Both the position numbers and the translations under genes were made by a program. 64,000 nt of DNA, from assembly GCA_030390025.1 (NCBI GenBank), contig CM059432.1, forward strand, positions 43,340,001 to 43,404,000, read 5' to 3'. This stretch comes from Squalus acanthias. Its lineage: Eukaryota. Position 1 is the stretch's first letter. Each line of letters starts with the position of its first letter. The notes beneath the pieces were generated by a model. The model saw only the letters and a program-made list of their open reading frames with translations. It did not search any database and was not told the origin of the DNA. Positions 36,448 to 51,825 of the stretch are shown here, in pieces.

Positions 36448-39400
36448 AGTCTCTTTGCAAGCAAAGTTATGAAGGACAGCAACCAAAGTACCAGCGAAGT
36501 TAGGATCAGTAGGCAAAACTACCTCACAAAGCGTTGACTCAATGCAGAAGTCTCTCTTTCTCTCTCTCCGAATCTCTCTCTCTCTCTCAGAACGAGTGGT
36601 GCAAAAATGTCAACCACAGAAAAAGACAGGAAGAGGCCCCCTTTAAATAGCGCCCCCCCCAGCCCCACAGCGATTGATAGCGTTCCAGTCTTCCGGTCGT
36701 TGGATGCGCCAGGCGGTAAGGCAGGGGGCGCCACTCAATTTCTGCTCCGGGGCGCTACAAGGGCGTTGCACCATGGAATGACGTCACAATCTGCGCGCGC
36801 AGGTGGTCGCGGCGGTAAAGTTTAGCGCCGCCGCACAATGTCTAGTTAAGTTCCCGAGCGGCGCAAACATCGCTGCGCCCGGGCGCTAGCGGCTTTGCGC
36901 CCCATTAGCGCCCTCTTAAGGCGCTAACGGGAGGCGCAACCAACTGAATTTTTCCCCCTTACTGTCTTCAGCTTGTGCATTAGCTTTTCATGTGGCTCTT
37001 CATTGAAAGTCTTCTGAAAGTCTATCACTGCACCTGTTAACATCTACTTGGGGTGTAACTTCTTTGACAAAAAGTCAAAAGTTCGTAAGGCAGTATTTTC
37101 TCCTTCTGAAACTTTGTTGGCTGCCAGTTACTAGATTGTAATCATATAGATACTCCTCGATATTATTCCTAATGAATGATTTCATTATTTTGTCCATTAC
37201 AGAAGCAAGACTAATAGATCTGTTGTTGCCCAGGTCAGTTTTAGCATTTTGCTTATAAATAAGTACCAAATTATCAGGCAAGTTACAGCAGACTGCTCTT
37301 GTACATCTCCTAGCAGCCTGCTTTAGAGTTGTAATGACATAGGCTTTGGAGCAAGTTGTTTGGTTACTCTCTCTTCTGGGGAATGGGACAACCTGGGAAG
37401 GGACAGAAACAATTGAAAAATGGGGACCTTAAGAAAAACATAGTGGCAATATGTTGTAACTACTTCTGTGCATGGTTAACGAGAACACTTCCTGTTTCAG
37501 CTGAATGACGGAGTTGTCAAAAAAGTCTTTACAATGCTACTTGACACTGCTTTATACTTCCTTTTTTCAAATCATCATTTGAGCTTGCAAACTTTAACTA
37601 TATTTATAGGAGTCTAATGCTTCATTTATTTATTCCTGAACAAGGTGCTGCATTTAGAATAACTGAGTTGCTATATTTTTTATTTTTTAGAATATATACA
37701 TATATATATTTGCTAAGATGCTGAATTACTATTGTGCTGAATTACCATGAGAAATGATTGGGACACAGCAGGAAATATTAAGAAAATTTTAAATCATGAT
37801 AATTAATCTTTGTTATAAATTTGTGTGGCCCAAATAGAGACTGCTATAGTCCTCAAAGGAAACAAATCACCTCTAGGTGAAGAGATGAAGATCAAATAAC
37901 ATGATATAGCTTAATAAGTTCATTTGACACTTATAGTGGCACCAATATTACTTGCATGTCAGTCAGAGAAAAAATGCTATCAAATCCAGTTACCCGATTC
38001 ACAAGATTTACCCCAAGTGCAAGACCTCTAGTTAATAATGTAATTGCCTGCATTAAGATTTATTCACCAAACCTGTTAATATAAAGATGATCACCAATGG
38101 GTGCAGTAGTGCAATTTCAATTAAATAATAGAGATTAATCGGCTTCTGTAATATTCATCAGGTTGACTAAAGGCAGCTAGCTACTAACAGCAGACCTGAT
38201 TTAATCTCTCTGTAATAGGCACAGTGCTTTGTTACAGTAGCTATTATCATATTATTTATTAAATGTCTGCCTGCGTCAATCTCTCAGAAAAGCGATTTGT
38301 GAGATGCCATATGGTAGTACTTATTATTACAACAAAATCGAAAAAGCAGACACACACAAATCAACTATATGACATGGTGATTTTTTTCAGAATGTTGTCA
38401 GTAATTACCAATTGGCAAAGCGATAGCAGAGCTTCATAACCGGAAAATTGAGGACTCTTATTCAGATGTGAATCAAACGTAAAGTACATCAAAAATGTAG
38501 GCTGCAATGCTTACTTCATTAGACACCCATGTATCAAAAACAATTTCCACTAACCAACAATAATATGTTTCATTTAACTTGTCTGCTAGAAGCTAAAAGA
38601 ATTAACTGAAAGCAAACATTTGCAGTGGCAACAACACACTGCAGATTAATGAAACATGCAGTAGCTTCTTTTCCATTGTTTTAATTGTTAGGTTACTGGT
38701 TACCCCCACCCACCGAAGAGTAACTGCTCATTAAGGGAGGAATCATTTCCCCTTATGGTGTTCTGGAATGTATATGCTTAAGTGAAGAGTCTCGCTTTCT
38801 GTATTAGTGATATGTTCATTTGCCATGCAAAAGTGGAAGTGATATTCCAGCCGAAAGGTATATTTTTACAGTACTTCATGACCAGAACGTGCAGCTTCAA
38901 TGGACAAACTGGTTACTGTTCCAGACAGATTGACAAGTCATCATAGAGTCATAACGGCACAGAAGGAGGCCATTCGGCCCATCGAGTCCGTGCCGGACCC
39001 GTTACAGTTTGGCTGCACCAGGAATATTTTAGAGCCTTCTTCAGTTTTTACTTGATTCCAAAAAAATATTGAATTAGGAAATGCTTTGAAATCACATATG
39101 ATTACTTAGTTGTGCTTTATAATACTCAAAAATGTAACATTCTATTTGACCACAAGACCTAAAGCTGCGGAAGACATTCAGTACTGAAAAGTTAACAAGC
39201 TGCCTTTACACAGTATTGCTAGTTTTTGGGGCCAAAACCCGATGGGCCTGTGATCCCGGCAATATGCCAGGAATCGGCCTTCACCGCTGACCCTGACAGA
39301 TCCTCCAAGATCAGGAGCAGTTTTTTTTTTATTCATTCATGGGATGTGGGTGTCGCTGGCAAGGCCAGCATTTATTGCCCGTCCCTAATTGCCCTCGAGA

Positions 39401-39466
39401 AGGTGGTGGTGAGCCGCCTTCTTGAACCGCTGCAGTCCGTGTGGTGAAGTCCGTCACTCTGGTCGT

Positions 39467-41818
39467 TTACGCGGCGCTTTCTTCGTGCACGCGCACGTAA
39501 CGCTCTCGCCACTCTCCCGTGTTTTCCTGTTTGGTGAGGCGCTTGCCTCTCTTGCAGTGCACGACCAATAGGTACACTACAATTATTACCTGGCATACAA
39601 CTAAAATGTGGGAGGCTATTCTAATCCAGGAAGGCACTTCAATATTGGTGAACTGATCCCACCACGGTGGGATTACTATGTCTAGGATCTCTGACCCTAT
39701 CTCGACAGTCTTTTGCTCAAGGGTATAAAAATGTTTCTGCGAAACCGCTACGGCTTTCAAAAGCTTGGTGAGGTGTTCAGGGAGAGGGGGAATGATGTAT
39801 CCGAAATGCGCGACAAATCGCTGCAAGTCGGTGAAATTCTCTTTTACTGTAAGATGAACAGTGGATGGTTCAGGGATTGGGACAATTCGCTGCTGTGCCA
39901 CTTGAACTTCAGCCCTGGGTTTAAAACAGAAACTGCTGTCACTCACCGGACACCGGCTACGGTTTCCATGCTGGTAGTGTTGCGCTGCAGTGGTAACGCA
40001 ATATGTTCCACCCCCTATGTATGCCACCTGCGGAGGCACATGATCTTGTGCCATTGCCTCCATGGTGCAATTCATGGGCTTGGCGCCAGCCATTCTGAAC
40101 CCGCACTGTGGTGATAAAAAGGCATTCAAGTGCTGGGGACACAGGTTTATGTGTGCTCCCCTGTCACGACAACCAGAGAGATCTGTACCTGTCATCGTTT
40201 GCTCCCAGCGGATGACGTAAGGTGGGACCGCTGCGTAGCGAATGTGGGATCCCCCCTGAATGACACCAATGTTCTCTACCCGATACACCGGGGCGGGCTT
40301 TGCTGTGTCGCCCAAAACCGGTATACGTAAGACTATACCCATAATGGTATGGTTTGACCGTCCGCAGTCCACGGGGACTGGGTATGCTTCTGAGGCTAGC
40401 CTGAGCTGGCACGGGCTTAATGCGTTCTGAAAAGGGTGGAGCGCCTGCAGGTGTTTGTTACTTATCTAGGACGGGACCAAACCTTGTTTTAAATCCTCCA
40501 AATTACTGCGGCCCTCGCCCAGTAACCACGCCCCGTATAGTACGCACACCTCGTTCTGCGCAGCTTGATCGGATGCATTCCGATCTTCCCTAATCAGGGC
40601 ATTTACCGTACGCGCATGTTTCTCCAGCTCAGCTATGATTTCTTTTAAGTGGATCGTCATGGCCTGGTCTTCATGTAACCCAGACCCTACCACCTTATTT
40701 TCGTCTGTAAGGATATTCTTCAATTGGGTTTTTAAACCATTAATCTGGGTCTGCAACTCCACGTTATCTAGAGCGTTGACCACAGATGTCCCTGTATTGA
40801 AAGCGGTGAACATGTCGTTCACAACACCCCTTCTTTGTCTCCCCACCTGGCCCAAAACTTCGTGTGGTGTGGTGTACAAGCTTGTCTTGTCAATCTCTGC
40901 AAAATCAAACTCGTAGAATTGTCTAAACATGTTGGTCAACAGGACTTGATATAACTGTTCCGTCTCTTTGGGGCACCACTCTGGCAACCGCACCTCGGTG
41001 AGATTTAAAATCACCGAGGCCACCGCGTAATGTACCCCCTGAAATAGTATCTGGTCTGTGGGGACCAGTACCAAACCATTCCCGGGTCCCTTACTGGTTT
41101 TAGGGCACCCTTCTTCCTGAGCCAAAACTACCGGAATCGTGGGCGGGGCCTTGCGTGGGCGCGTAATGAGTTCAGTGGTGTTTACCGGGATCGGAGAGTA
41201 TGGGGCTCCGCACCCCCTGGTGCTTACATCCCACCTCATCCCCTGCCCGTTATCCTGCCACTGATTCACGAAAAATATGGATATGCCTTTGGGGCAAACG
41301 TGCTTTGACCCCCACATACATACATAGATTCCCTCATCCGGTTCCCACCATTTGTCCCAACAGACTCTCAATTGTCCGTTAGTCCCCGTAATTGTCCGAT
41401 GGGTATTATTACCCAATCGCTCCCATTCAACCGAAGAATTCCTCATATTTCTGCTCAGCTTTCGTAGCCACCACCATCGGCTCAATGGGACATTCCCATT
41501 ACAAGTCAAACAAATCCGTTTGCCGACGGTGATGCTGACTCTGGGTGCGATGATCCTCACTTTGGGGCACATCAAAGAAGTCTCTTTATAGGCAAATCCC
41601 GATGTACTGGAATATTCAGTTGAATTCGTTCCCAGCCATCCTGGCCACCTTCCTTTGTGGAAATAAGTGGCGATCTCCTCAGCCTCTCGCCTCCCGGTCC
41701 CATCCACCGCGATGGGGGCTGTGTCCCCGGAGCATCCAAACACCACGACATCCTTGGTGCGGCCTCGATAGGCCAATCCACATCCAAATGCCGCGAGCAC
41801 TACCAGAATCCGTTCCAT
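39467..41818 (-). pseudogene. env: Envelope glycoprotein (~783 codons) with one in-frame TAG at 40466-40468
   Basis: Signal peptide MERILVVLAAFGCGLA, Ig-like motif, furin site RQRR, fusion-peptide-like GVVNDMFTAFNTGTSVVNAL, heptad repeat, Cys-rich region, TM ILVVCQVIIVVYLLVV and basic tail. ORFs 40466-41935 and 39467-40372 share a frame with 31 open codons between them. Confidence 0.85.
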
Positions 41819-42087
41819 CCTTCCTTGGTTCCTGTGATCAGATAGAATGAGGTAGCCAGCCTCCCAAGAGTCTCTGGCTTTTGTGAAGGATGAGCGGGTC
41901 CCCTGACCTCGCCTCACGTAAAAAGACATGTGCACTGGATAGACCTTTCAACTAAACCTAATCTAAACTCCCATCATTTATCTTTTACTTATCAAATTAA
42001 ACTATCAAACTTACAAACTTACAAACTATAAAACTTATCACTTATCTTATAAACTGTACAGCGCCACCCGTTCCCAGGGCGGCCTAC

Positions 42088-43200
42088 CTAAATTCTGTGA
42101 AGGCGGCCACGAGTTTTTCCCAACGGTGGGAGGGCACCGACCCCTTCCTTTGATCTGCCGCAGCCTGTCTCTGCTGCGCTGTGACTGGGCTCTCCCTGGG
42201 CTGCCTTAGCCTTCAACCTACGCTTTGGGACACTCTGGGGACTTGACCATATCTTCCTGGGCTGGGGTGTCCGACTTGACCTACGGGGAGCTACCGGGGG
42301 CAAGAACTCCAGAACCGACGGACCGGGTTTCGAGACTTCCACCGTCGCGACCTGTGGTCCCACCACAGCCGCTGGCTCCGCCTCCCCTAGCTCCGCCTCC
42401 CTGAACTCGGGATCTGCAGTCTCTGGCACCGCCCTACTTGGCCCAGTAGGCGGCCCTTCACTCGCAGTCCCTACCTCCCCCGAGGGCAAGACTCCCAAGG
42501 CGGACGGACTGGGTTCTGAGACTTCCATCGCCACGTCCTGTGGTCCCGCCACAGCCGCTGGCTCCGCCTCCCCTAGCTCCGCCCCCCTGAGTTCGGGACC
42601 TGCAGCTTCTGCTTCCACCTTGTGTGGACCTCCGCACGCAGTCCCTATCTTCCCTTTACTTGAATCGGGGGCGAACCCTTCGTCCTCCGATCCCAGCTCC
42701 TCTTCGCTCGGGTCACTATCTTGGTCAAGCTCCTTGAACTCTTCCTCATCTGACTCCCAACCCCAATAAAGGATCCTACATTTTGCTAGGATGTCCTCTC
42801 CCCTGATGCAAGCTGCTTTGCCAGCCTGCGTGCCCTGCGGTCCTACCCGGGGCTGCGAGTCCCCACTCGCAGGTTTGGCCCCTGTGGTTGGCCCTTGTGC
42901 ACCCGGCTTATACAGCTTGCACTGGTTAAAATCCTCATACTTCCTGCTTCTGGCTACCCTGCAGGCTGCTTTTATCTCTCTAAGCTGCCCTTCTAGCCCA
43001 TCTATTTTCCCCATTAAGCGGGCGTTCTCCTCCCGTAAGGCCTGCTCTCTAAGCTGCCCTTCTAGCCCGTCTACTTTCCCCATTAAGCGGGCGTTCTCCT
43101 CCCGCAGGGCCTGCTCTTTTAACCTGGCCTCCTTACAGGAGACCCCCTCCTGTGCATGTCTTTTAAAAGGACACAGGTAGGCAGGCTGCGTGGGCTCTAG
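42088..43200 (-). CDS. ORFX: unknown coiled-coil plus acidic/Pro-Ala-rich protein, in frame with gag through a UGA-CUAG stop
   Basis: Open for 370 codons from the codon right after the gag stop. Contains a 2x23-aa coiled-coil repeat, a 2x ~38-aa AELGEAEPAAV repeat and a basic C-terminus. No pol motifs. Confidence 0.65.
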   Translation of the reverse strand, partial: LEPTQPAYLCPFKRHAQEGVSCKEARLKEQALREENARLMGKVDGLEGQLREQALREENARLMGKIDGLEGQLREIKAACRVARSRKYEDFNQCKLYKPGAQGPTTGAKPASGDSQPRVGPQGTQAGKAACIRGEDILAKCRILYWGWESDEEEFKELDQDSDPSEEELGSEDEGFAPDSSKGKIGTACGGPHKVEAEAAGPELRGAELGEAEPAAVAGPQDVAMEVSEPSPSALGVLPSGEVGTASEGPPTGPSRAVPETADPEFREAELGEAEPAAVVGPQVATVEVSKPGPSVLEFLPPVAPRRSSRTPQPRKIWSSPQSVPKRRLKAKAAQGEPSHSAAETGCGRSKEGVGALPPLGKTRGRLHRI

Positions 43201-45024
43201 TCATTGGGTACTGTTGGACGGGGCTGCGGCATCTGTGGGGCCGGTAGCGACTGCTACCCTTCCTTGCGAAATCATGAGGGTCCGCATGGCTCCCAGCATT
43301 GATTCTATCGCATCGGGATGGATATGCACACCAGCTCCCTTATCGGGGGCAGGCGCCTGGGCTCGGGCTGCGGGATTTTTATCCCTGGACTCTTTCCAAG
43401 GGTTCCTGCAGTTCTTGCGCCAGTGCCCTGTCTTTCCGCACCCGAAACAAGCATTACTGGCTTGTGGGACGCGATTTCCCTCCTGATGCCACTCCTTTTG
43501 AGCCGGGGCGGTGGGCCGTGCCTCATGCACCTTTCCCTTAAGGGGACGCGCCCCCGTGCTCCTTGTGTTACGGTATCCTACCGTGAGTCGATTTAAGACC
43601 GACTCCTCTGTTGTGGCGGGGTTAGTGGGATCAAACCACGCTTTTGCCTGCTCCCTGAAGGCTGGCAAACTGTTGGCTACTACACACCTGAGCCAATGAG
43701 TTAAACCAACGCCGTCCAAATAGGCGCGCTCTGGCGCCCCTGGGCAGCTACGCTGGTATACTGGCCACAGCCTGTCGGCGAAAACCTTCAGGAGTTCTCC
43801 CTCCATCTGCACTGTCTGTCCCAATCTAACGAACGGACCTTCATTGTCCGCCCCCAACACTTCCAGGACCTCGTCCCTTAATTCCCCATAGGTATGATCT
43901 CCCCTTTTGCTCGCGTCTGAGAGACACTGTAGGACCGAGCTGTCTAATGAGAACAGCAGCATTTTTGCCTTTTCCCCATCGTCGCAGCCGTTAATGGCTG
44001 CGGTCTGCTCTACCTCCCTGAAATGTACGGAAGGGTCGTCTGACTCGGACAGCTTCCGTATGTGACTGATCATAGCCCTCAGCTGGTGTGCATTATGCGG
44101 CAACACAAGCTGGCTGAGGAGATACCCCGCTTCCCCACCTTCTCCGTTCGGGCCCCTCTTGATACCCGTGACCGGACACAACGGTCCCGGCTTCACTACT
44201 ACTTCAGGGGATTGTACTACCTCGGGGACCTCTTCCTCTACTTCTACCACTTCCTCCCTTACCCAGGTTGCCGAATAGCTGGGTGGCGCGGAGGGCACAG
44301 TGGCAAATACCTCCTCTGCTTTGTTTGGTAGGGATTTTTTGAATTCCCCACCCACCAGCGGCTGGTGTGCTGACGGGCTGATAAGGCACACCATGCCGTG
44401 CGCTTTATTCAGGGCCTCTTTAAGGTTCCCTATCTCTCTCTGGCAGACGCTGTGGTCGGCCCCCTCATGTTTATCTTCAAGGGCCATCTTATATGCCGCC
44501 CTAACTCCCTTCAAGCTTTCTTCTTGGGCTTTTATTTGAGCAGCTAGGCGGGCACATCGTTCCCTGATTCTGCCCTCATTTAATTTTGCCTCAGTGAACT
44601 GGCACTCGAGGTAATCTATTTTAGCCTCATGGTGGTTGGCTACTATCTGGCGTTCCTGATGCAACGCATTTAAAGACGCGATGAGCTGCTGCCCCCCCGC
44701 AACCTTTTCCTCCATCTCCACCACCAAACCCGTGATCTGAGCTGCCTGCGCTACGATGACCTGGTCCGAAAGCTGGACTTGCCTTTTATAACACATCAGC
44801 CAGACCGCTTTCTCTACCGATTTTCTGTGCTCTTTACTGCCTGTCCACCTGATGGCTGCGTCTAGCGGACGCTTATCCACCAGCAGGTCACTTATCCATC
44901 TCTTAGTCAAATTAACCTTACCAAACACATAATCGGCTATTCTCTCTTCCATAACATTTCGCCCATTCATACCAGGGTCTAACACATTACTTTCTCGCTG
45001 CCAGTGTCCCTTCGTGGTCGCCAT
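43201..45024 (-). CDS. gag: Gag (N-terminal helical/coiled-coil region, capsid-like region, CCHC nucleocapsid)
   Basis: 607-aa open ORF directly after the LTR, with zinc knuckle CFGCGKTGHWRKNC and capsid-like DDPSVHFREVEQTAAINGCDDGEKAKMLLFSL. The first ATG overlaps the PBS, so the true start may be a downstream Met. Confidence 0.88.
   Translation of the reverse strand: MATTKGHWQRESNVLDPGMNGRNVMEERIADYVFGKVNLTKRWISDLLVDKRPLDAAIRWTGSKEHRKSVEKAVWLMCYKRQVQLSDQVIVAQAAQITGLVVEMEEKVAGGQQLIASLNALHQERQIVANHHEAKIDYLECQFTEAKLNEGRIRERCARLAAQIKAQEESLKGVRAAYKMALEDKHEGADHSVCQREIGNLKEALNKAHGMVCLISPSAHQPLVGGEFKKSLPNKAEEVFATVPSAPPSYSATWVREEVVEVEEEVPEVVQSPEVVVKPGPLCPVTGIKRGPNGEGGEAGYLLSQLVLPHNAHQLRAMISHIRKLSESDDPSVHFREVEQTAAINGCDDGEKAKMLLFSLDSSVLQCLSDASKRGDHTYGELRDEVLEVLGADNEGPFVRLGQTVQMEGELLKVFADRLWPVYQRSCPGAPERAYLDGVGLTHWLRCVVANSLPAFREQAKAWFDPTNPATTEESVLNRLTVGYRNTRSTGARPLKGKVHEARPTAPAQKEWHQEGNRVPQASNACFGCGKTGHWRKNCRNPWKESRDKNPAARAQAPAPDKGAGVHIHPDAIESMLGAMRTLMISQGRVAVATGPTDAAAPSNSTQ
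45006..45023 (-). promoter_or_regulatory. Primer-binding site complementary to tRNA-Arg(UCG)
   Basis: Minus strand TGGCGACCACGAAGGGAC. The plus strand GTCCCTTCGTGGTCG-CCA matches the 3' 18 nt of vertebrate tRNA-Arg-TCG as I recall it. Confidence 0.85.
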
Positions 45025-45028
45025 TATC

Positions 45029-47526
45029 TGTAAGGGGGTTTCGCCTGGCTCTGTGCTTAGCCTGGGTGCTAGTGCGAGGTTAGGCCTTGTTGCCCGTTCT
45101 GGTCTCCAGCCAGCCTGGTAGCACTAGACACCTGTGAGTGGTTCGACCCACTCGCCCTTACGGTTCTGACACTGGACTTAGGTGCGAGAGCAGTAAATGC
45201 AGAGAAAAACTCAGGTAGACCCGGTTGAATAGTACGAAATGGAAAATCTTTATTGCATATTATTCAAGATTACGAAATACATGTCATAAGCACAGATTAA
45301 TGACAGTACAAACTTACATACATTTATGCAACTAGGTTTAGGGAAACGAGGAACGCACGACACATCGTAAAAGGGGACACACATTATAATTATCCTTAAA
45401 ACAAAAACCCTCCCCTATCAATACCTGTCCTAATCTAGATCTGTAGGATCAAGAACCATGCTCACTACTCGTGATAACTCGGAGAATTCTAAAACGATGC
45501 TCGGATGTTTTCACCACAGCACCTGACTATTCACGTGTTGATCAGGGGTCTCTGTACCCCACTTGTTTACTCGCTTTGCTCCGGCTAGCAGGCTGGACCG
45601 TCTGCTGTCATGAAGATCTGTGTTGACCTCGGAACTCTGATAAAACTCAAAGAAGAGTCTTCCTGTGCCCGACACCGGTTGGCAGTAGAATTCGTGTGGT
45701 AACCTGTAAATGTTCTTTATAGTTCGGGCGCGGTCGGGGTTTACTGATCGCGGCGACACGTGTAGTCGTCTTGGGTCCGGCTGTAGAACTCAAAGAAAAG
45801 TCTTTCTGGACCGACACCAGTTAGCCGGTAGAATTCAAAGAAGAGTCTTTATATTTACGGGCGCGGTCGGGGTTTACTGACCGCGGCGGCACGTGTAGTC
45901 GTCTTGTTCTTCTTGTCTTGTTTCGTTTCATTGGGCCTTCGGGTCCCTACACCGTTTACCGACCCTCAGGATGGTGCACCCGCATACCGGCCTTTGCAGC
46001 CCAGCTCTTCACAGATCTTCGCGGCAAGCCACGAGGTTGACTCCCGGAAGATCAGCGGACCAAGAGCTCGGTGGGCCGCAAACGAGAGCCAGGGGTCGAA
46101 TCAAGAGAAAGATGGACGTTTGTTTACTACAGTTATAGTACTGTAATTCTTTATCTCCCGCCCAATCTTAATGTTCATCTTTTGTCATGTTTTTGGCGCT
46201 CAAACTCCTTGTATGGGGTGGTACTTGTCGTTAATGGGTTTCGGTGATACCTGTAACTGTCTAAGTACCCGTTAATATTTCTCCCATTATGGAACCGGTT
46301 AGGAGTCTCCCTGGAGGGGTTTTGGGGCCCTCCGAATTCTTGCTGTGAGTACCCGCGAACGGCTCTCTCATCATAGAGCCGTGGGGAATTTGCGTATCAA
46401 TGTCTTTGGATGGGCCCTTAATTGCCCAGTACAATAGCCCTCGTTTGTGCATGGAAAACCGATTCCAGCACTTATATTCTCTTAGGTGTACAAAATGCAA
46501 AACGATCGCGTCTTGTCTTATTTCATTATGCTGAGTACTGTCCGATCTTGCTGAAATGTTTATTGAAATGCCATCTTGTCTGCCTACTGAAAAGTCTAGA
46601 AACTTCTGCCACGAGGCGCGGCGGCCATTTTACAGGCTGCTTGTGTCCGTTTTTGAACCTGACAGCATTTTGCTGAAATAAAGCTGTTTTTACGAAACTG
46701 TATGGGCTAAAAATTCGGCTGCTTGCGCCTCCCGTTAGCGCCTTAAGAGGGCGCTAATGGGGCGCAAAGCAGCTAACGCCCAGGCGCAGCGCCGCCCACG
46801 CCTCCCGCAAAATTCAGCGGGAGGTTAGCGGTGGCACCAGCCGGTAGCGCCCTGTGGCGCTGCGCCGCCGGCGATGACGTCATCGCCGTGCGCAGCACCC
46901 CGCTCGCGCTCCAGCCGCGATCTTTAGTCGCGCCCCCTGATTTACCGCCAGACGCTATGTGCGATGGGTTCAGGGGGGCGTACGTGCGGCCAGGGCGGCG
47001 ATATTTAAAGGGGAGGTGGCAGGCGGCCATTTTTGTTGCTGGCCGCCTGCCAGCACCTGCCCCCGTTGCTGTCCCCGGCCCCCGTGAAGCCCCCCCACCG
47101 TGAAGTGCCAGCTGCACTCCAAGAGCCCGGCACTTCTCTTGAGTGCCGGGCTCTTTTGCCAGCACTCCCGATCCCTGGGGGCCCAGCTGGGCCCCGGTTC
47201 GCGATGCGCAGGGCCCCTCCCCTTTAAGAAGGGGAGGAAGGCCTGCAATACCGCGGCGCGACGTGCTGCAGCGCCTGGCGCTGCGGCACGTAGCGCCAGG
47301 ATATTCCCTCGCAGCGCCCCAAGAGGGATGCGGGGTGCTTCCAGTAGCGCCCCGCTTCCCTCTTGGGGCGCAACCACTGAAGTTCCGGCGCGGGGGCGCT
47401 AATTTTTTCGGGGCGCTAAACGTAGCGCCCCGGCGAGGTTAGCGCCCCAAATGGGGCAATACTCAATTTTTAGCCCTATGTCTCTATCTCGTTATTTCGA
47501 AATCGTGATAATTTGCGAATTCTACA
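45029..47526 (-). repeat. Putative 5' LTR (~1.72 kb after removing the MITE)
   Basis: Starts TGTAG exactly at the LINE junction and ends TTACA 5 nt before the PBS. AATAAA on minus at 45249-45254. No second copy is available to confirm it. Confidence 0.72.
46704..47476. mobile_element. Harbinger MITE related to the 32803-36958 element, inserted in the ERV LTR
   Basis: TIRs (GGGCTAAAAATT / AATTTTTAGCCC) and TSD TAT. It shares TTGCGCCTCCCGTTAGCGCCTTAAGAGGGCGCTAATGGGGCGCAAAGC with the reverse complement of the autonomous element's right end. Confidence 0.9.
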
Positions 47527-47614: not shown

Positions 47615-50352
47615 TGAAGGGATAATTACAAGTCCTTGCCCTTCTTGGGCTACCCCAGATCAGGCGTATTCCCCAGACGTTCCCCTTCAACTAGAGTTAG
47701 AGATAGCCGAATCCTCTCAGACGCTTAATTGGGTCTAAAGGTTCAGACTATCTCTCCCTAAAGGAAAGGAACAGCCTAAAGATGTTACCATCCTTCGGAT
47801 AGCACTTTTTACAAGTTTAACTAGACTGTAATCTTCCGGATATTATGAGGGTCCGGAAAACCCCCCAGAATTCTGCAACTCCTCTCAAAGGCGTGTACAG
47901 AAATTGAGTTTGCGAGATTGATACAGAAATACTCTTGGAGACAATTTAAAAAATATATAGATTTATTAAAGAACCGACATTTAGTTAACAGCTGGTATTG
48001 CATTCGCAACTTTAACTGTTCAAAATACAAATAGCTTACATTTCTTATCAGAGATCCTTATTCTCAAATCTTAACTTTGTTACATTTCCACACTTCTACT
48101 TATTTCTTAATCCAGAATATCCACCAAAATCAAATACCTTGATTACCCGAGACTCAGAGTTGTAGGCCTACAGAGTGGTTCTGAAGGCAAGAATCGCTCT
48201 GCCCCTTCCCAGCGACTTCTGACTCTCTATCTGAAAAGCTCTATTTTTATACCTTTTTTAGTGGTATGTTCTTTGAAGTTTTCTGCTGATGTAAGCTAAT
48301 TATCTCCAGCCATTCTTTATTGAATTCTTTTCTATTCTTACTGTCATTTCAGCTGCCAACTTTTAGAATTCTGTCTCTACCTTTAGGTGTTTCAAAAACT
48401 TATCATTTTTATGGTTATTATTGATTTATCTATTTGATGCTATTCTTAGGAAGTCTTTCTATTGAATTCTTAACTCCCTTTAGCTGCTTGTTAGCAGATG
48501 TCGTGTCTCCTAACTATTCCATTTTCAATACAAACACAATGTAATTGCTTGGTGTCATCTATTGATATTATATCTTCAAAGTGTTTTTTAGGTATCTTTT
48601 ACAACTTGTAAATTAAAAACGCTTCATCTAGGGTGTTCTTTGCATTTCTTAGCTATTTCAATTGGTTGCATATTTAATTGTGTTTCCTGTCTTATTTGAT
48701 GTTACTTTTACAAAGGCACATGGTTTTTTTAATGTTCTGTGCACCTGTTCGACGTGTTAGATTTTAACACTTTACTTGGGCATTGCTATTGTTTTGGTAC
48801 CAAACCACAGACTCCTTGGAACCAACTCTTTGCTTCTCCAATAGGGCCTTTGTCTTTGTATTTACAAACCAATTCCCATTTCAAAGCTTGTTTGGTGCTT
48901 ACAGCTTTTGTTATCAACTGTTCTTATCTCAAAAGCCTGTATTGTGTTTGCAGCCTGTGTCCCTGAGTCTTTCCAGACTTTTAAACCCAGTATGTAATGT
49001 ATTAATAATATCAGAAATCTGTTCATAGGATGGTGTATTTTTCTGAAATATGGCTATTCCATTACACCTGAAGATGTTACCATCCTTCGGATAGCACTTT
49101 TAACAAGTTTAACTAGACTGTAACCTTCCGGATATTATGAGGGTCCGGAAAACCCCCCCAGAATTCTGCAACTCCTCACAAAAGAGTGTACAGAAATTGA
49201 GTTCGTGAGGTTGATACAGAAATACTCTGTGAGATCATTTTAAAAATATATAGAGTTATTAAAGAACCGACATGTAGTTAACAGCTTTTGATTTCAATCG
49301 CAACTTTAACAGTCCAAACTACAAATAGCTTACATTTCTTATCAGAGATCCTTACTCTCAAATCTTAACTTCGTTACATTTCCCCACTTCTACTTATTTC
49401 TTAATCCAGAATATCCACCAAAATCAAATACCTTGATTACCCGAGACTCAAAGAGTTGTAGGCCTACAGAGTGGTTCTGAAGGCAAGAATCGCTCTGACC
49501 CTTCCAGCGACTTCTGACTTTCTATCTGAAAAGCTCTATTTTTATACCTTTTTTAAGTGGTTTATCCTTTGAAGTTTTCTGCTGATGTAAGCTAAATATC
49601 TCTAGCCATACCGTTGTTGACTTCTTTCTATTCTTACTGTTAATTCAGCTGTTAGCTTTCAGAATTCTGTCTCTGTATAGGTGTTTCAAAAATCTTATCA
49701 TATAAAATAGTTAGTACAGATTTATCTCTTTGATGCAATTCTTTCGAAGGTCTTCAATTCAATTCTTAATATTGGCTTAACTGCTTGTATTTCAGACTTC
49801 TCGTCTCCTTGTGTTCCAAGTTTAACACATAAACAATGTGATTGCTTGGTACATCTATTGATATAATATTTTCAAAGTGTTCTGTAGGTAACTTTTACAA
49901 TATGTAAATCAAAACACTTCATCTAGGGTGTTCTTTGCATTTCTTAGCTATTTCAATTGGTTGTATATATATTCTTGTTTCCTGTTTCATTTGATGTTAC
50001 TTTTACAAAGGCACATGGTTTGTTAATGTTCTGTTTTTCTGTTCGACATGTTAGCTTTTAACACTTTACTTGGGCATTGCTATTGTGTTGGTTCCAAACT
50101 ACAGACACCTTGGAACCAACTCTTTGCTTCTTCAATAGGCCATTGTGTCAGTGTCAATAACCAATCTTTATCTCAAAAGCCTGTATGGTGTTTACAGCTT
50201 TGTGACTCATCTTATCACAGAAGCCTGTATTTACAGCTTGTGTCGTTGAGGCTTTTAGATTTTTAACCCTAGTTTGTCATGTTTTAATAAAATCAGAATT
50301 TTGTTCATAGGATGGTGTATTTTTCTGAATAGGTTTGGCTCATTCCTTTACA
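47615..50352 (-). repeat. Two tandem diverged LTR-like units (47615-49066 and ~49067-50352)
   Basis: ~1.29-kb direct repeat. Each unit begins TGTAA on minus and has TATAAAAA. The block ends CA and has TSD-like GGAT/AGAT flanks. Confidence 0.7.
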
Positions 50353-51479
50353 AGATGTTGTTCACATGTAACGATCAGGAGCAGTTCTCTATTTTGTTTG
50401 CCTCTGGCAGATGCCAACGCTACTAGAAACACATCTTAGACATCTGCCGGCTTCTGGAGGCCACAAAATGTGACTTACTGTGTCCATTTTGGGGATGGGT
50501 AGTGTTAGTGCCATTCTCAGCGAGTGCAAAGTTAGGTCTCCTTCATAAGGGAACCTCATTTAATTTTTTTAACTTCCCTGGGAGCTTCTTTCAGGGATCC
50601 AGGCCAAGCACCTGACCTAGGCCATCAGTTGGGACCCATTGACACCAGTTAGCAGCTTGGTATTCCTGATCTTGTTAGGCGTACCAGTCAACAATCTGAC
50701 TGAGCAGCCGGGAATGTGGGAACTCCGAAATTTAGTCCCCTTCCTTGCATCTGCCCCTCTTATGCAGCTGCCCTTGTAAGAAGCAGGTGGAGACTCCGCT
50801 TTTGTCAGTGCCAGGCAGGGATTCTATCACAAGGCCAAGTCCCAACGTATCCAGGTCCCAACCGAACTCGTGGTCCTTCTGCCACACTTCTGCCAGAGCC
50901 ACGGTGCACTGGAAGGGGCTGCGGAGCCTTGGCCCTTTTATTTCTAGAAACCAAAACTACAAACAGATTACAAGTTGAAATAAGAAAAATTACAAGCATT
51001 TAACAAAATATGGTCCAGGTATAAACATTATTTAAATCTAAAATTTACAAAAATTATTTTTTTACAAAAAAGAACAATCACACAATGCTTTCACATTGAT
51101 ATAGTAATAAGATACAGAAGGGAAGTCTCATCTTCAGGTCAGAGTTCCAGTGAACTTCCACCCGCCTTTCTATATCTGCCCTGTCCCAACCCATTTTCCA
51201 ATGTTGGGCTCATTACATATACGTGGCGAGCTTCCAGCAGGAATCCTGCTGTCAAGAGAGAGGATGCCAGTGTGTGTAAGGAAACTCCGGCGGTACTGCA
51301 GTGAGACGCCGCTGCAGCACTAGAAGAGGTGTCAAGGGACCTTATAAGGGCAGAAGCACGCTGAAGATTGAAATAAAGGCCAAGATGAAGATCTTCGACA
51401 TGTAAGTGTCTTTGTCTAATTGGAGGGAGAGGAGACCACTACAGGGCCCACTCCCTCTATTGGGGAGAACACAGAGCCT

Positions 51480-51825
51480 TTTTTTTTATTCATTCGTGGG
51501 ATGTGGGCGCCATTGGCAAGACCAGCATTTATTGTCCATTTATTGTGTGGCACGAATGTTACTTGCCACTTATCAAGCCAAGCCTGAATGTCGTCCAGGT
51601 CTTGTTGCATGCGGGCATGGACTGCTTAATTATCTGAGGAGTTGCAAATGGAAGTGAACACTGTGCAATCATCTGCGAACATCCCCACTCCTGACCCTAT
51701 GATGGAGGGAAGGTCATTGATGGAGCCGCTGAAGATGGTTGGGCCTAGGACTCTGCCCTGAGGAACTCTTGCAGCAATGTCTTGGGGCTGTGATGATTGG
51801 CCTCTAATAACCACAACCATCTTCC
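51480..51825 (-). mobile_element. CR1/Zenon-like LINE fragments
   Basis: Peptides VPQGRVLGPTIF, MFADDCTVF, QQDLDDIQAW. Confidence 0.8.

Follow-up and report, generated by a model that had tools for sequence, protein, structure and literature searches.

A recurrent pol-less form of an endogenous retrovirus in Squalus acanthias, with a foreign in-frame insert between gag and env

A 64,000-nt stretch of the Squalus acanthias genome (contig CM059432.1, positions 43,340,001 to 43,404,000; the window) carries a retroelement on its minus strand, at 39452-47526, in which the place of pol between gag and env is taken by an open reading frame (ORF) of 370 codons, named ORFX here. What this frame is, and how an element lacking enzymes of its own could have multiplied, are the questions raised by this locus. 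Comparison with other copies in the genome indicates that the element is very probably an amplified, trans-complemented deletion derivative of an abundant ~13.6-kb endogenous retrovirus (ERV), comparable to the mouse IAP 1-delta-1 element.

The window copy was read from stop-to-stop frames, their translations and the raw sequence. Its features follow each other in the order 5' long terminal repeat (LTR), primer-binding site (PBS) for tRNA-Arg, gag, in-frame ORFX, spacer and env (Table 1). All the parts listed in the initial annotation of this stretch were recovered on the minus strand: an LTR, an 18-nt PBS(Arg), an intact 607-codon gag, the 370-codon ORF, an AT-rich spacer and a near-intact env. 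The reported lack of enzymes was borne out as well: no protease (PR), reverse transcriptase (RT), RNase H or integrase (IN) domain was found by Pfam in the frames of the window, those of gag, ORFX and env included.

ORFX and the pol gene of the full-length relatives

A pol-containing helper sharing LTR, PBS and gag had been postulated, and suitable relatives are present in the genome. Four copies of this long form were retrieved, the two forms being told apart by the distance between gag and env (~4.6 kb vs. ~1.25 kb in the short form). The full-length relatives measure ~13.6 kb, are organized as LTR-PBS(Arg)-gag-pol-env-LTR and have LTR, PBS, gag and env in common with the pol-less form. The two LTRs of a copy, 1.57-1.75 kb long with TG...CA ends, share 97.3-98.3% identity. 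For three of the four copies, the flanking sequence shows a 4-bp target duplication; the LTR boundary of the fourth was not resolved. Pol contains the domains RVP, RVT_1, RT_RNaseH_2, RNase_H, Integrase_H2C2 and rve, and is of the type PR-RT-RNase H-IN with a tether and an added RNase H. Many RT matches sit in open Pol frames of ~1,495 aa, and a purine-rich stretch precedes the 3' LTR. At the family level, the characters of a retrovirus-type provirus are all present: paired LTRs, a 4-bp duplication, PBS and polypurine tract, and gag-pol-env.

Comparison between the window copy and the full-length copies revealed collinearity across gag and the first 32 nt past the gag stop. The next 241 nt (43168-42928) have no counterpart in the full-length copies. 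Collinearity resumes at the last eight integrase codons and runs on through a stretch of ~270 codons and env. Both deletion junctions were read base by base, and GT/AG is absent at both. Of the 370 ORFX codons, about 290 align collinearly with one or the other end of the relatives' Pol frame, the foreign part being limited to the 241 nt. From this collinearity, ORFX is an in-frame internal deletion of pol with an 80-codon insert at the scar: ~11 codons remain from the start of the Pol frame and ~280 from its end, and the ~3.6-kb enzymatic core (protease, RT, RNase H and integrase core) is gone. The view that a different, non-pol gene had come to occupy the slot of pol does not hold, as most of the frame consists of the pol ends. 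An origin of the pol-less form as a retrotransposed spliced RNA was rejected, since the insert is missing from the full-length copies and the junctions are without GT/AG.

The ~270-codon stretch common to both forms was assigned with the help of the pol-bearing copies. Among 11 distinct ones, integrase runs in frame through this stretch in six, and in a seventh up to a late stop; three are frameshifted and one is not assessable. These six in-frame runs, together with the RT matches in long open frames, identify the stretch as the C-terminal tail of Pol. The tail (42091-42900 in the window, and its full-length homologues) consists of ~270 acidic, proline-rich residues behind integrase, with an internal duplication spaced by 186 nt. 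No family was matched in the Pfam search, AlphaFold2 (AF2) predicts it to be mostly disordered, and the opposite strand is also open, over 194 codons. Its dN/dS is 0.50, an estimate biased downward by the choice of copies through protein similarity. As the tail is exchanged with the helpers (see below), this value says little on the pol-less form. Apart from the ~11 first codons, the tail is the sole part of Pol retained by the defective form, which makes the latter a system for asking about the role of the tail.

Amplification of the pol-less form and exchange with its relatives

The host genome represents a search space of 3.7 Gb, in which the numbers of first-look candidates are rough. For gag, 69 scored matches at 89-100% identity stand against 13,213 first-look candidates. 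Env gave 10,019 candidates, other copies being 95-97% identical and many of them open over ~826 aa. Candidates for ORFX or its tail number 8,774, and those for RT-RNase H 21,703, a figure that may include other families. By these rough counts, the retrovirus family appears very large and young.

Further copies with the same layout had been set beforehand as the test of recurrence, and were found in quantity. With a 331-nt DNA probe laid over both junctions, all 40 scored matches span both of them at 93-100% identity (2,271 first-look candidates). The 80-aa insert peptide was recovered in 150 of 150 scored matches at 85-100% identity, 148 of them free of stops (2,714 candidates). Paired LTRs and one 4-bp duplication complete the picture (see below). 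The damage of the window copy (truncation, interrupted LTR, stop in env) could suggest a one-off rearranged provirus with a private deletion, the outcome named at the start as fatal to the proposal. This explanation is refuted by the identical junctions in all scored copies, on many contigs, and by complete copies with paired LTRs; its probability is practically negligible.

The share of the pol-less form was estimated by probe typing of the best matches: the insert is present in five of 19 other gag matches (14 with pol) and in three of 11 other env matches (eight with pol). About one-quarter of the copies would be pol-less, in agreement with the rough numbers of candidates (~2,300-2,700 for the insert vs. 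8,774 for ORFX/tail). For annotation, this means that one family accounts for thousands of loci of the type "gag-unknown ORF-env" in this genome.

A complete pol-less copy, 9,336 nt long, is collinear with the window copy at 95.8%, has LTRs 99.1% identical to each other and is flanked by a private 4-bp duplication. For four further pol-less LTR pairs, identity amounts to 99.3, 99.0, 98.8 and 98.4%, in part measured on incomplete LTRs. All five values exceed all four of the full-length copies, which hints that the sampled pol-less insertions are younger than the full-length ones. The same copies bear on an alternative in which segmental duplication or gene conversion spread the form as DNA, without reverse transcription by a helper. 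Some matches do lie close together on one contig (e.g., the pairs on C7, C11, C13 and C3234). Against this, copies are dispersed over most of the large contigs, LTR identity within a copy (98.4-99.3%) is higher than between copies (~93-97%), and the one complete copy examined has its own target duplication. Multiplication at the DNA level is accordingly very improbable, and retrotransposition with the help of the full-length relatives is preferred. The characters of a non-autonomous element are found together: RT and integrase are gone, the cis elements (LTR, PBS) are kept, the same defect recurs in many insertions, and a coding-competent relative is present in the genome.

The relation between the two forms was examined with two trees. 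In the gag tree (25 copies: eight pol-less and 17 pol-bearing), the pol-less label needs eight changes, at least seven of which are forced by well-supported branches, and the gag of the window is nearest (98%) to two pol-bearing copies. In the tree of the Pol tail, the region directly beside the insert (16 pol-less and 10 pol-bearing copies), eight changes are needed and at least five are forced. A deletion combined with a foreign insert is a complex event, very unlikely to have recurred; hence, frequent recombination is the simplest reading of the interleaved trees. Retroviral RNAs packaged in the same particle recombine when RT switches templates. As judged from the trees, the pol-less form is a recombining partner of the putative helper and not a separately evolving lineage. 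The initial proposal of a satellite-like lineage that supplies Gag and Env and borrows Pol stands for the pol-less form with its pol-bearing relatives, and fails for the separate lineage. As a footprint, the interleaving is consistent with co-packaging and recombination at the scale of the genome.

The PBS gives a further link between the forms. Its complement is the 3' end of a host gene called tRNA-Arg(TCG) by ARAGORN. Two PBS variants occur in the family, each matching a different variant of the host tRNA-Arg(TCG) gene. The second one is common to two sister copies of the gag tree, one of them pol-less and the other pol-bearing (L077 on contig C24 and L083 on contig C23). For the second tRNA variant, the genome contains 431 occurrences of the 3'-end word, most of them in tandem arrays with a period of ~1,623 nt on contig C26 (38.99-42.2 Mb). 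In the window copy (45006-45024), the PBS also codes for the first seven residues of Gag, with no leader in between; a packaging signal or splice donor, if present, would therefore have to lie in R/U5 or within gag.

Of 32 pol-less copies, 29 have TGACTAG at the end of gag, as do 15 of 16 pol-bearing ones. UGA CUAG is a readthrough-favoring consensus in mammalian genes (bioRxiv 10.1101/2021.04.18.440353). Because this stop context is conserved, the Gag-Pol of the helper and the Gag-deltaPol of the defective form are most likely made by in-frame readthrough. Assembled contigs from two sequencing runs (X5 and X6) bridge the junction between gag and insert, and loose ends show the pol-bearing form in the same runs; this demonstrates presence and is no proof of transcription.

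These elements can be combined into a putative history. A single ancestral event would have removed ~3.6 kb of pol and left a 241-nt foreign piece with the frame kept, so that in the ORFX product a helix of 80 residues would follow 11 residues of Pol and precede the final ~280. Transcription driven by the LTR would give Gag and, through UGA-CUAG readthrough, some Gag-deltaPol fusion. The pol-less RNA would be co-packaged with RNA of the full-length relatives in particles holding the Gag-Pol of the latter. Reverse transcription primed by tRNA-Arg and integration, both by helper enzymes, would then produce the 4-bp target duplication. Frequent template switching between the co-packaged RNAs would keep gag, Pol tail and env exchanging with the helper.

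Several points weigh against this explanation. The window copy itself is inert, with an interrupted LTR, a stop in env and a missing 3' end. The copies studied are the best-scoring matches to the window genes and do not form a random sample. The target duplication was read at a single pol-less copy. When five extra pol-less copies were compared, three gave clean LTR comparisons, L020 was ambiguous and the 3' LTR of L002 was absent from its predicted place. The age contrast between the LTRs is one of five copies vs. four, partly on partial LTRs. The intermixing of the trees could also result from gene conversion between genomic copies. The case for readthrough comes from the stop context, none of the six runs containing the sequence is on record as RNA, and the evidence for mobilization by the helper is indirect, consisting of the interleaved gag and Pol-tail trees. 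Finally, env is unbroken in only one of five pol-less copies vs. six of 11 pol-bearing ones, which in this small sample gives no suggestion that selection keeps env in the pol-less form. For gag, the corresponding fractions are five of eight and 10 of 16 (small sample as well).

The 241-nt insert and the putative fusion protein

The insert contains a 69-nt (23-codon) tandem duplication and is open in the ORFX frame only. Among pol-less loci, the 23-codon unit is present in one, two or three copies, giving frames of ~347, 370 and 393 aa, each variant being found at several loci. In the AF2 prediction, residues 22-86 form a single long helix (pLDDT 85-97). A complex prediction for two copies of ORFX residues 1-96 scored 0.02, which weighs neither for nor against self-association.

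No source of the insert emerged from the searches made. Compared with two full-length copies by BLASTN-short and TBLASTX, it gave nothing below E 0.04. A word-indexed search with residues 10-95 among proteins of 203-648 aa found none sharing the insert. An exhaustive phmmer search over 1.84 billion representative proteins found no true relative, its six weak matches all being repetitive coiled coils of unrelated proteins. A PDB sequence search gave nothing relevant, and the best scores in a protein atlas (0.78) were uninformative. Pfam returned a weak coiled-coil match to Rab11-FIP3 (E 7.9e-6; 26.6 bits, under the cut-off of 31.9).

This last match is among the indications for a transduced piece of a host gene. 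Acutely transforming retroviruses are replication-defective viruses with Gag-X fusions, in which a foreign sequence in frame behind gag replaces pol and a helper supplies the enzymes. Under such an origin, the shark element would encode a Gag-host fusion with a host-derived activity; the insert is indeed foreign to the full-length virus, and both junctions look non-homologous. However, the protein searches yielded only generic coiled coils, and all the 150 scored genome matches lie in ORFX-type frames with no host source among them (lower-ranked candidates being unscored). Acutely transforming retroviruses are short-lived somatic variants with a recognizable host oncogene, whereas no source could be detected for the shark insert, and the pol-less form is fixed in the germ line in very many copies. 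Host transduction is an improbable origin.

Selection across copies, a check proposed at the outset, was measured on 32 copies ascertained by DNA similarity, a sample that replaces the one chosen by protein similarity for the insert. In the ORFX frame, pN/pS is 0.33 (0.19-0.61 by codon bootstrap, with one of 2,000 bootstraps reaching 1), vs. 0.89 and 1.39 in the remaining two frames. Variable sites per codon position number 24, 23 and 35. Stops are absent from all 32 copies, and one copy has a frame-breaking gap. The insert shows the signature of purifying selection, and the helix appears to be kept by it.

ORFX could nevertheless be a neutral leftover, in which the copies are young, the tail is refreshed by recombination with the helper, the 69-nt unit preserves the frame and Gag-deltaPol brings no benefit. 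The tail fits this well: it is interleaved with helper tails, so that its dN/dS need not reflect selection in the pol-less form, it is disordered by prediction, and the long open frames on its opposite strand are a sign of a composition effect. The insert has, in addition, no family, structure or database relative. It is also the insert that speaks against neutrality: it is exclusive to the pol-less form, yet its pN/pS in the ORFX frame is well below that of the other two and no stop occurs in the 32 copies. The 148 stop-free copies extend to identities down to 85%, and the one-, two- and three-unit variants each occur in several copies with open frames. A neutral ORFX is a real possibility, somewhat short of an even chance.

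As the insert is apparently kept by selection, the fusion protein is probably of help to the defective genome. It might act through cis-preferential packaging or through competition with Gag-Pol. Closest in behavior is IAP 1-delta-1, in which an in-frame internal deletion created a novel fusion ORF; the element is non-autonomous, needs proteins in trans and has been very successful (PMC6466679). Its fusion protein is reported to aid retrotransposition in cis (PMC6466679). By analogy, Gag-deltaPol may favor the defective genome in the same way, a suggestion put forward tentatively. The in-frame deletion giving a fusion ORF, the dependence on full-length relatives and the amplification are alike in both elements. 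However, IAP lacks env, and its deletion removed part of gag and pol and left enzymatic pol parts. The shark element keeps the whole of gag and env, loses all enzymatic pol domains and gains a foreign 80-codon helix, in a fish and not in a mouse.

A more far-reaching version is that the helix-bearing Gag-deltaPol is an evolved protein of the defective genome, made by readthrough and carried by Gag into particles, where it would give an advantage over the helper via cis packaging, displacement of Gag-Pol or the integrase tail. This version is speculative and rather unlikely. If true, the element would be an enveloped "satellite retrovirus" possessing an adaptive gene of its own, persisting long enough for one-, two- and three-repeat variants to arise and forming about a quarter of a very large provirus family. 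The element lends itself to studying how a retrovirus parasite evolves its own protein. Defective retroviral genomes able to outcompete their helpers have been described chiefly in the mouse (IAP 1-delta-1 and ETn), and the present case comes from a distant vertebrate. It also differs in kind: gag and env are both kept, a foreign helix appears to be under purifying selection, and in the trees its copies are mixed with helper copies.

ETn/MusD and the chicken family EAV-HP offer other examples of ERV derivatives that succeed without pol or without coding capacity. The pair ETn/MusD likewise consists of a non-autonomous LTR element and a coding-competent relative with shared LTRs that mobilizes it, the defective partner being at least as active (PMC6466679). 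ETn is non-coding, whereas the shark element keeps gag, env and an apparently selected fusion ORF. The chicken family EAV-HP has a copy number far lower than that of the shark family. EAV-HP is an ERV family in which the whole pol gene is gone and gag and env sequence is kept (PMC3554524), a likeness to the present copies without pol. Unlike these, the EAV-HP insertion on record is also missing parts of gag and env, and the consulted part of that source mentions no in-frame pol remnant carrying a foreign insert (PMC3554524).

Window copy, env and neighboring sequences

The window copy is a dead, 3'-truncated member of the amplified non-autonomous family. Its features are collected in Table 1, where F1 and F2 denote two full-length relatives. 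No 3' LTR is found anywhere in the window: homology to the relatives ends shortly after env, and the ~430-nt post-env region with the polypurine tract is missing, as is the whole 3' LTR. The zinc knuckle of gag is a weak match (zf-CCHC, E 0.0039, under the Pfam cut-off).

Table 1. Features of the retroelement copy, with positions in the window.
Feature	Position	Strand	Remarks
5' LTR, first 50 nt	47477..47526	-	Starts TGTAG; 90-98% to both LTRs of F1 and F2
Foreign insertion inside the 5' LTR, 772 nt, outside the retroelement proper	46705..47476		Not in F1/F2 LTRs
5' LTR, remainder	45029..46704	-	Ends TTACA; AATAAA ~240 nt from end; 88-95% to F1/F2 LTRs
PBS, 18 nt	45006..45023	-	5 nt past LTR; two-base overlap with gag ATG
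gag, 607 codons, open	43204..45024	-	ATG at 45024; one CCHC zinc knuckle
gag stop TGA followed by CTAG, candidate readthrough site	43197..43203	-	TGA = 43203-43201; ORFX in same frame
ORFX, 370 codons	42091..43200	-	Same frame as gag
Retained pol start, first 32 nt (ORFX codons 1-11)	43169..43200	-	Collinear with F2 up to 5' junction
Insert, 241 nt (ORFX codons 11-91)	42928..43168	-	69-nt tandem duplication; encodes a long helix (predicted)
Last 8 integrase codons and ~270-codon Pol C-terminal tail (ORFX codons 92-370)	42091..42927	-	Collinear with F1 and F2
ORFX stop and spacer up to env ATG	41819..42090	-	First 143 nt (42090-41948) 66% A+T
env, 783 codons and terminal stop	39467..41818	-	ATG 41818; stop 39469-39467; one in-frame stop 40468-40466
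Breakpoint, end of homology to relatives	39452..39455	-	15 nt past env stop

The predicted Env starts with a signal-like N-terminus, contains an RQRR site and a heptad-repeat helix, and has a membrane span in its C-terminal part. A link to lokiretroviruses and the paramyxovirus F protein had been suggested for it. The basis for such a link is a single match to PF00523 (fusion glycoprotein F0) in the C-terminal env fragment of the window, at E 0.036 and 12.8 bits (cut-off 29.8), which is not repeated in the intact 826-aa homologous Env or in C-terminal parts of the homologue. A PDB sequence search with the 826-aa Env gave nothing at E up to 10, and single-sequence AF2 prediction of the C-terminal subunit reached a mean pLDDT of 36, too poor for a comparison of folds. 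Database relatives number only two, in skate (78%) and sawshark (65%), too few for a useful alignment. The sawshark protein (P0013), annotated as "cadherin-related family member 5-like", begins with ~160 residues of the C-terminal part of Env, and probably represents a chimeric gene model that took in an inserted provirus.

Outside elasmobranchs, Pol is closest to "NYNRIN-like" entries from frogs and coelacanth (42-45% identity), and gamma-like Pol proteins reach ~30%. Lokiretroviruses resemble the shark family in being fish and amphibian ERVs with gag-pol-env, a dual RNase H and an Env with basic cleavage site, heptad repeat and membrane anchor (Wang and Han 2020, PMC7947760). The frogs and coelacanth that hold the nearest non-elasmobranch RT relatives belong to host groups named in the abstract of PMC7947760. 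A difference lies in Env: PF00523 is matched at 2.2e-7 in PMC7947760 vs. the weak hit to one fragment here. On these comparisons, membership in lokiretroviruses, or an F-like Env, is not confirmed. In the main text of PMC7947760, the words cartilaginous, shark and Chondrichthyes are absent. Neither the present family nor any pol-less derivative from cartilaginous fishes is described in the consulted part of the literature on lokiretroviruses and the env of shark ERVs. A preprint reports, in its consulted part, a high copy number and a low diversity of ERV RT in cartilaginous fishes, mostly of clade III; these high-copy ERVs could be the present family.

The 772-nt insertion in the 5' LTR is GC-rich and resembles a non-autonomous DNA transposon because of its 12-nt terminal inverted repeats and a duplicated ATA relative to the empty site in F2. 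The same repeat is found inside or beside two other pol-less copies (D1 and D2), and part of it in F1. At the other end of the element, the breakpoint is adjoined by a short interspersed repeat starting with a T-run (39322-39449), unrelated to the element, which is found again at 51479-51537 and flanking other loci. Directly upstream of the element, at 47775-50330, the window contains two tandem AT-rich units of ~1,295 nt, piecewise 82-98% identical.

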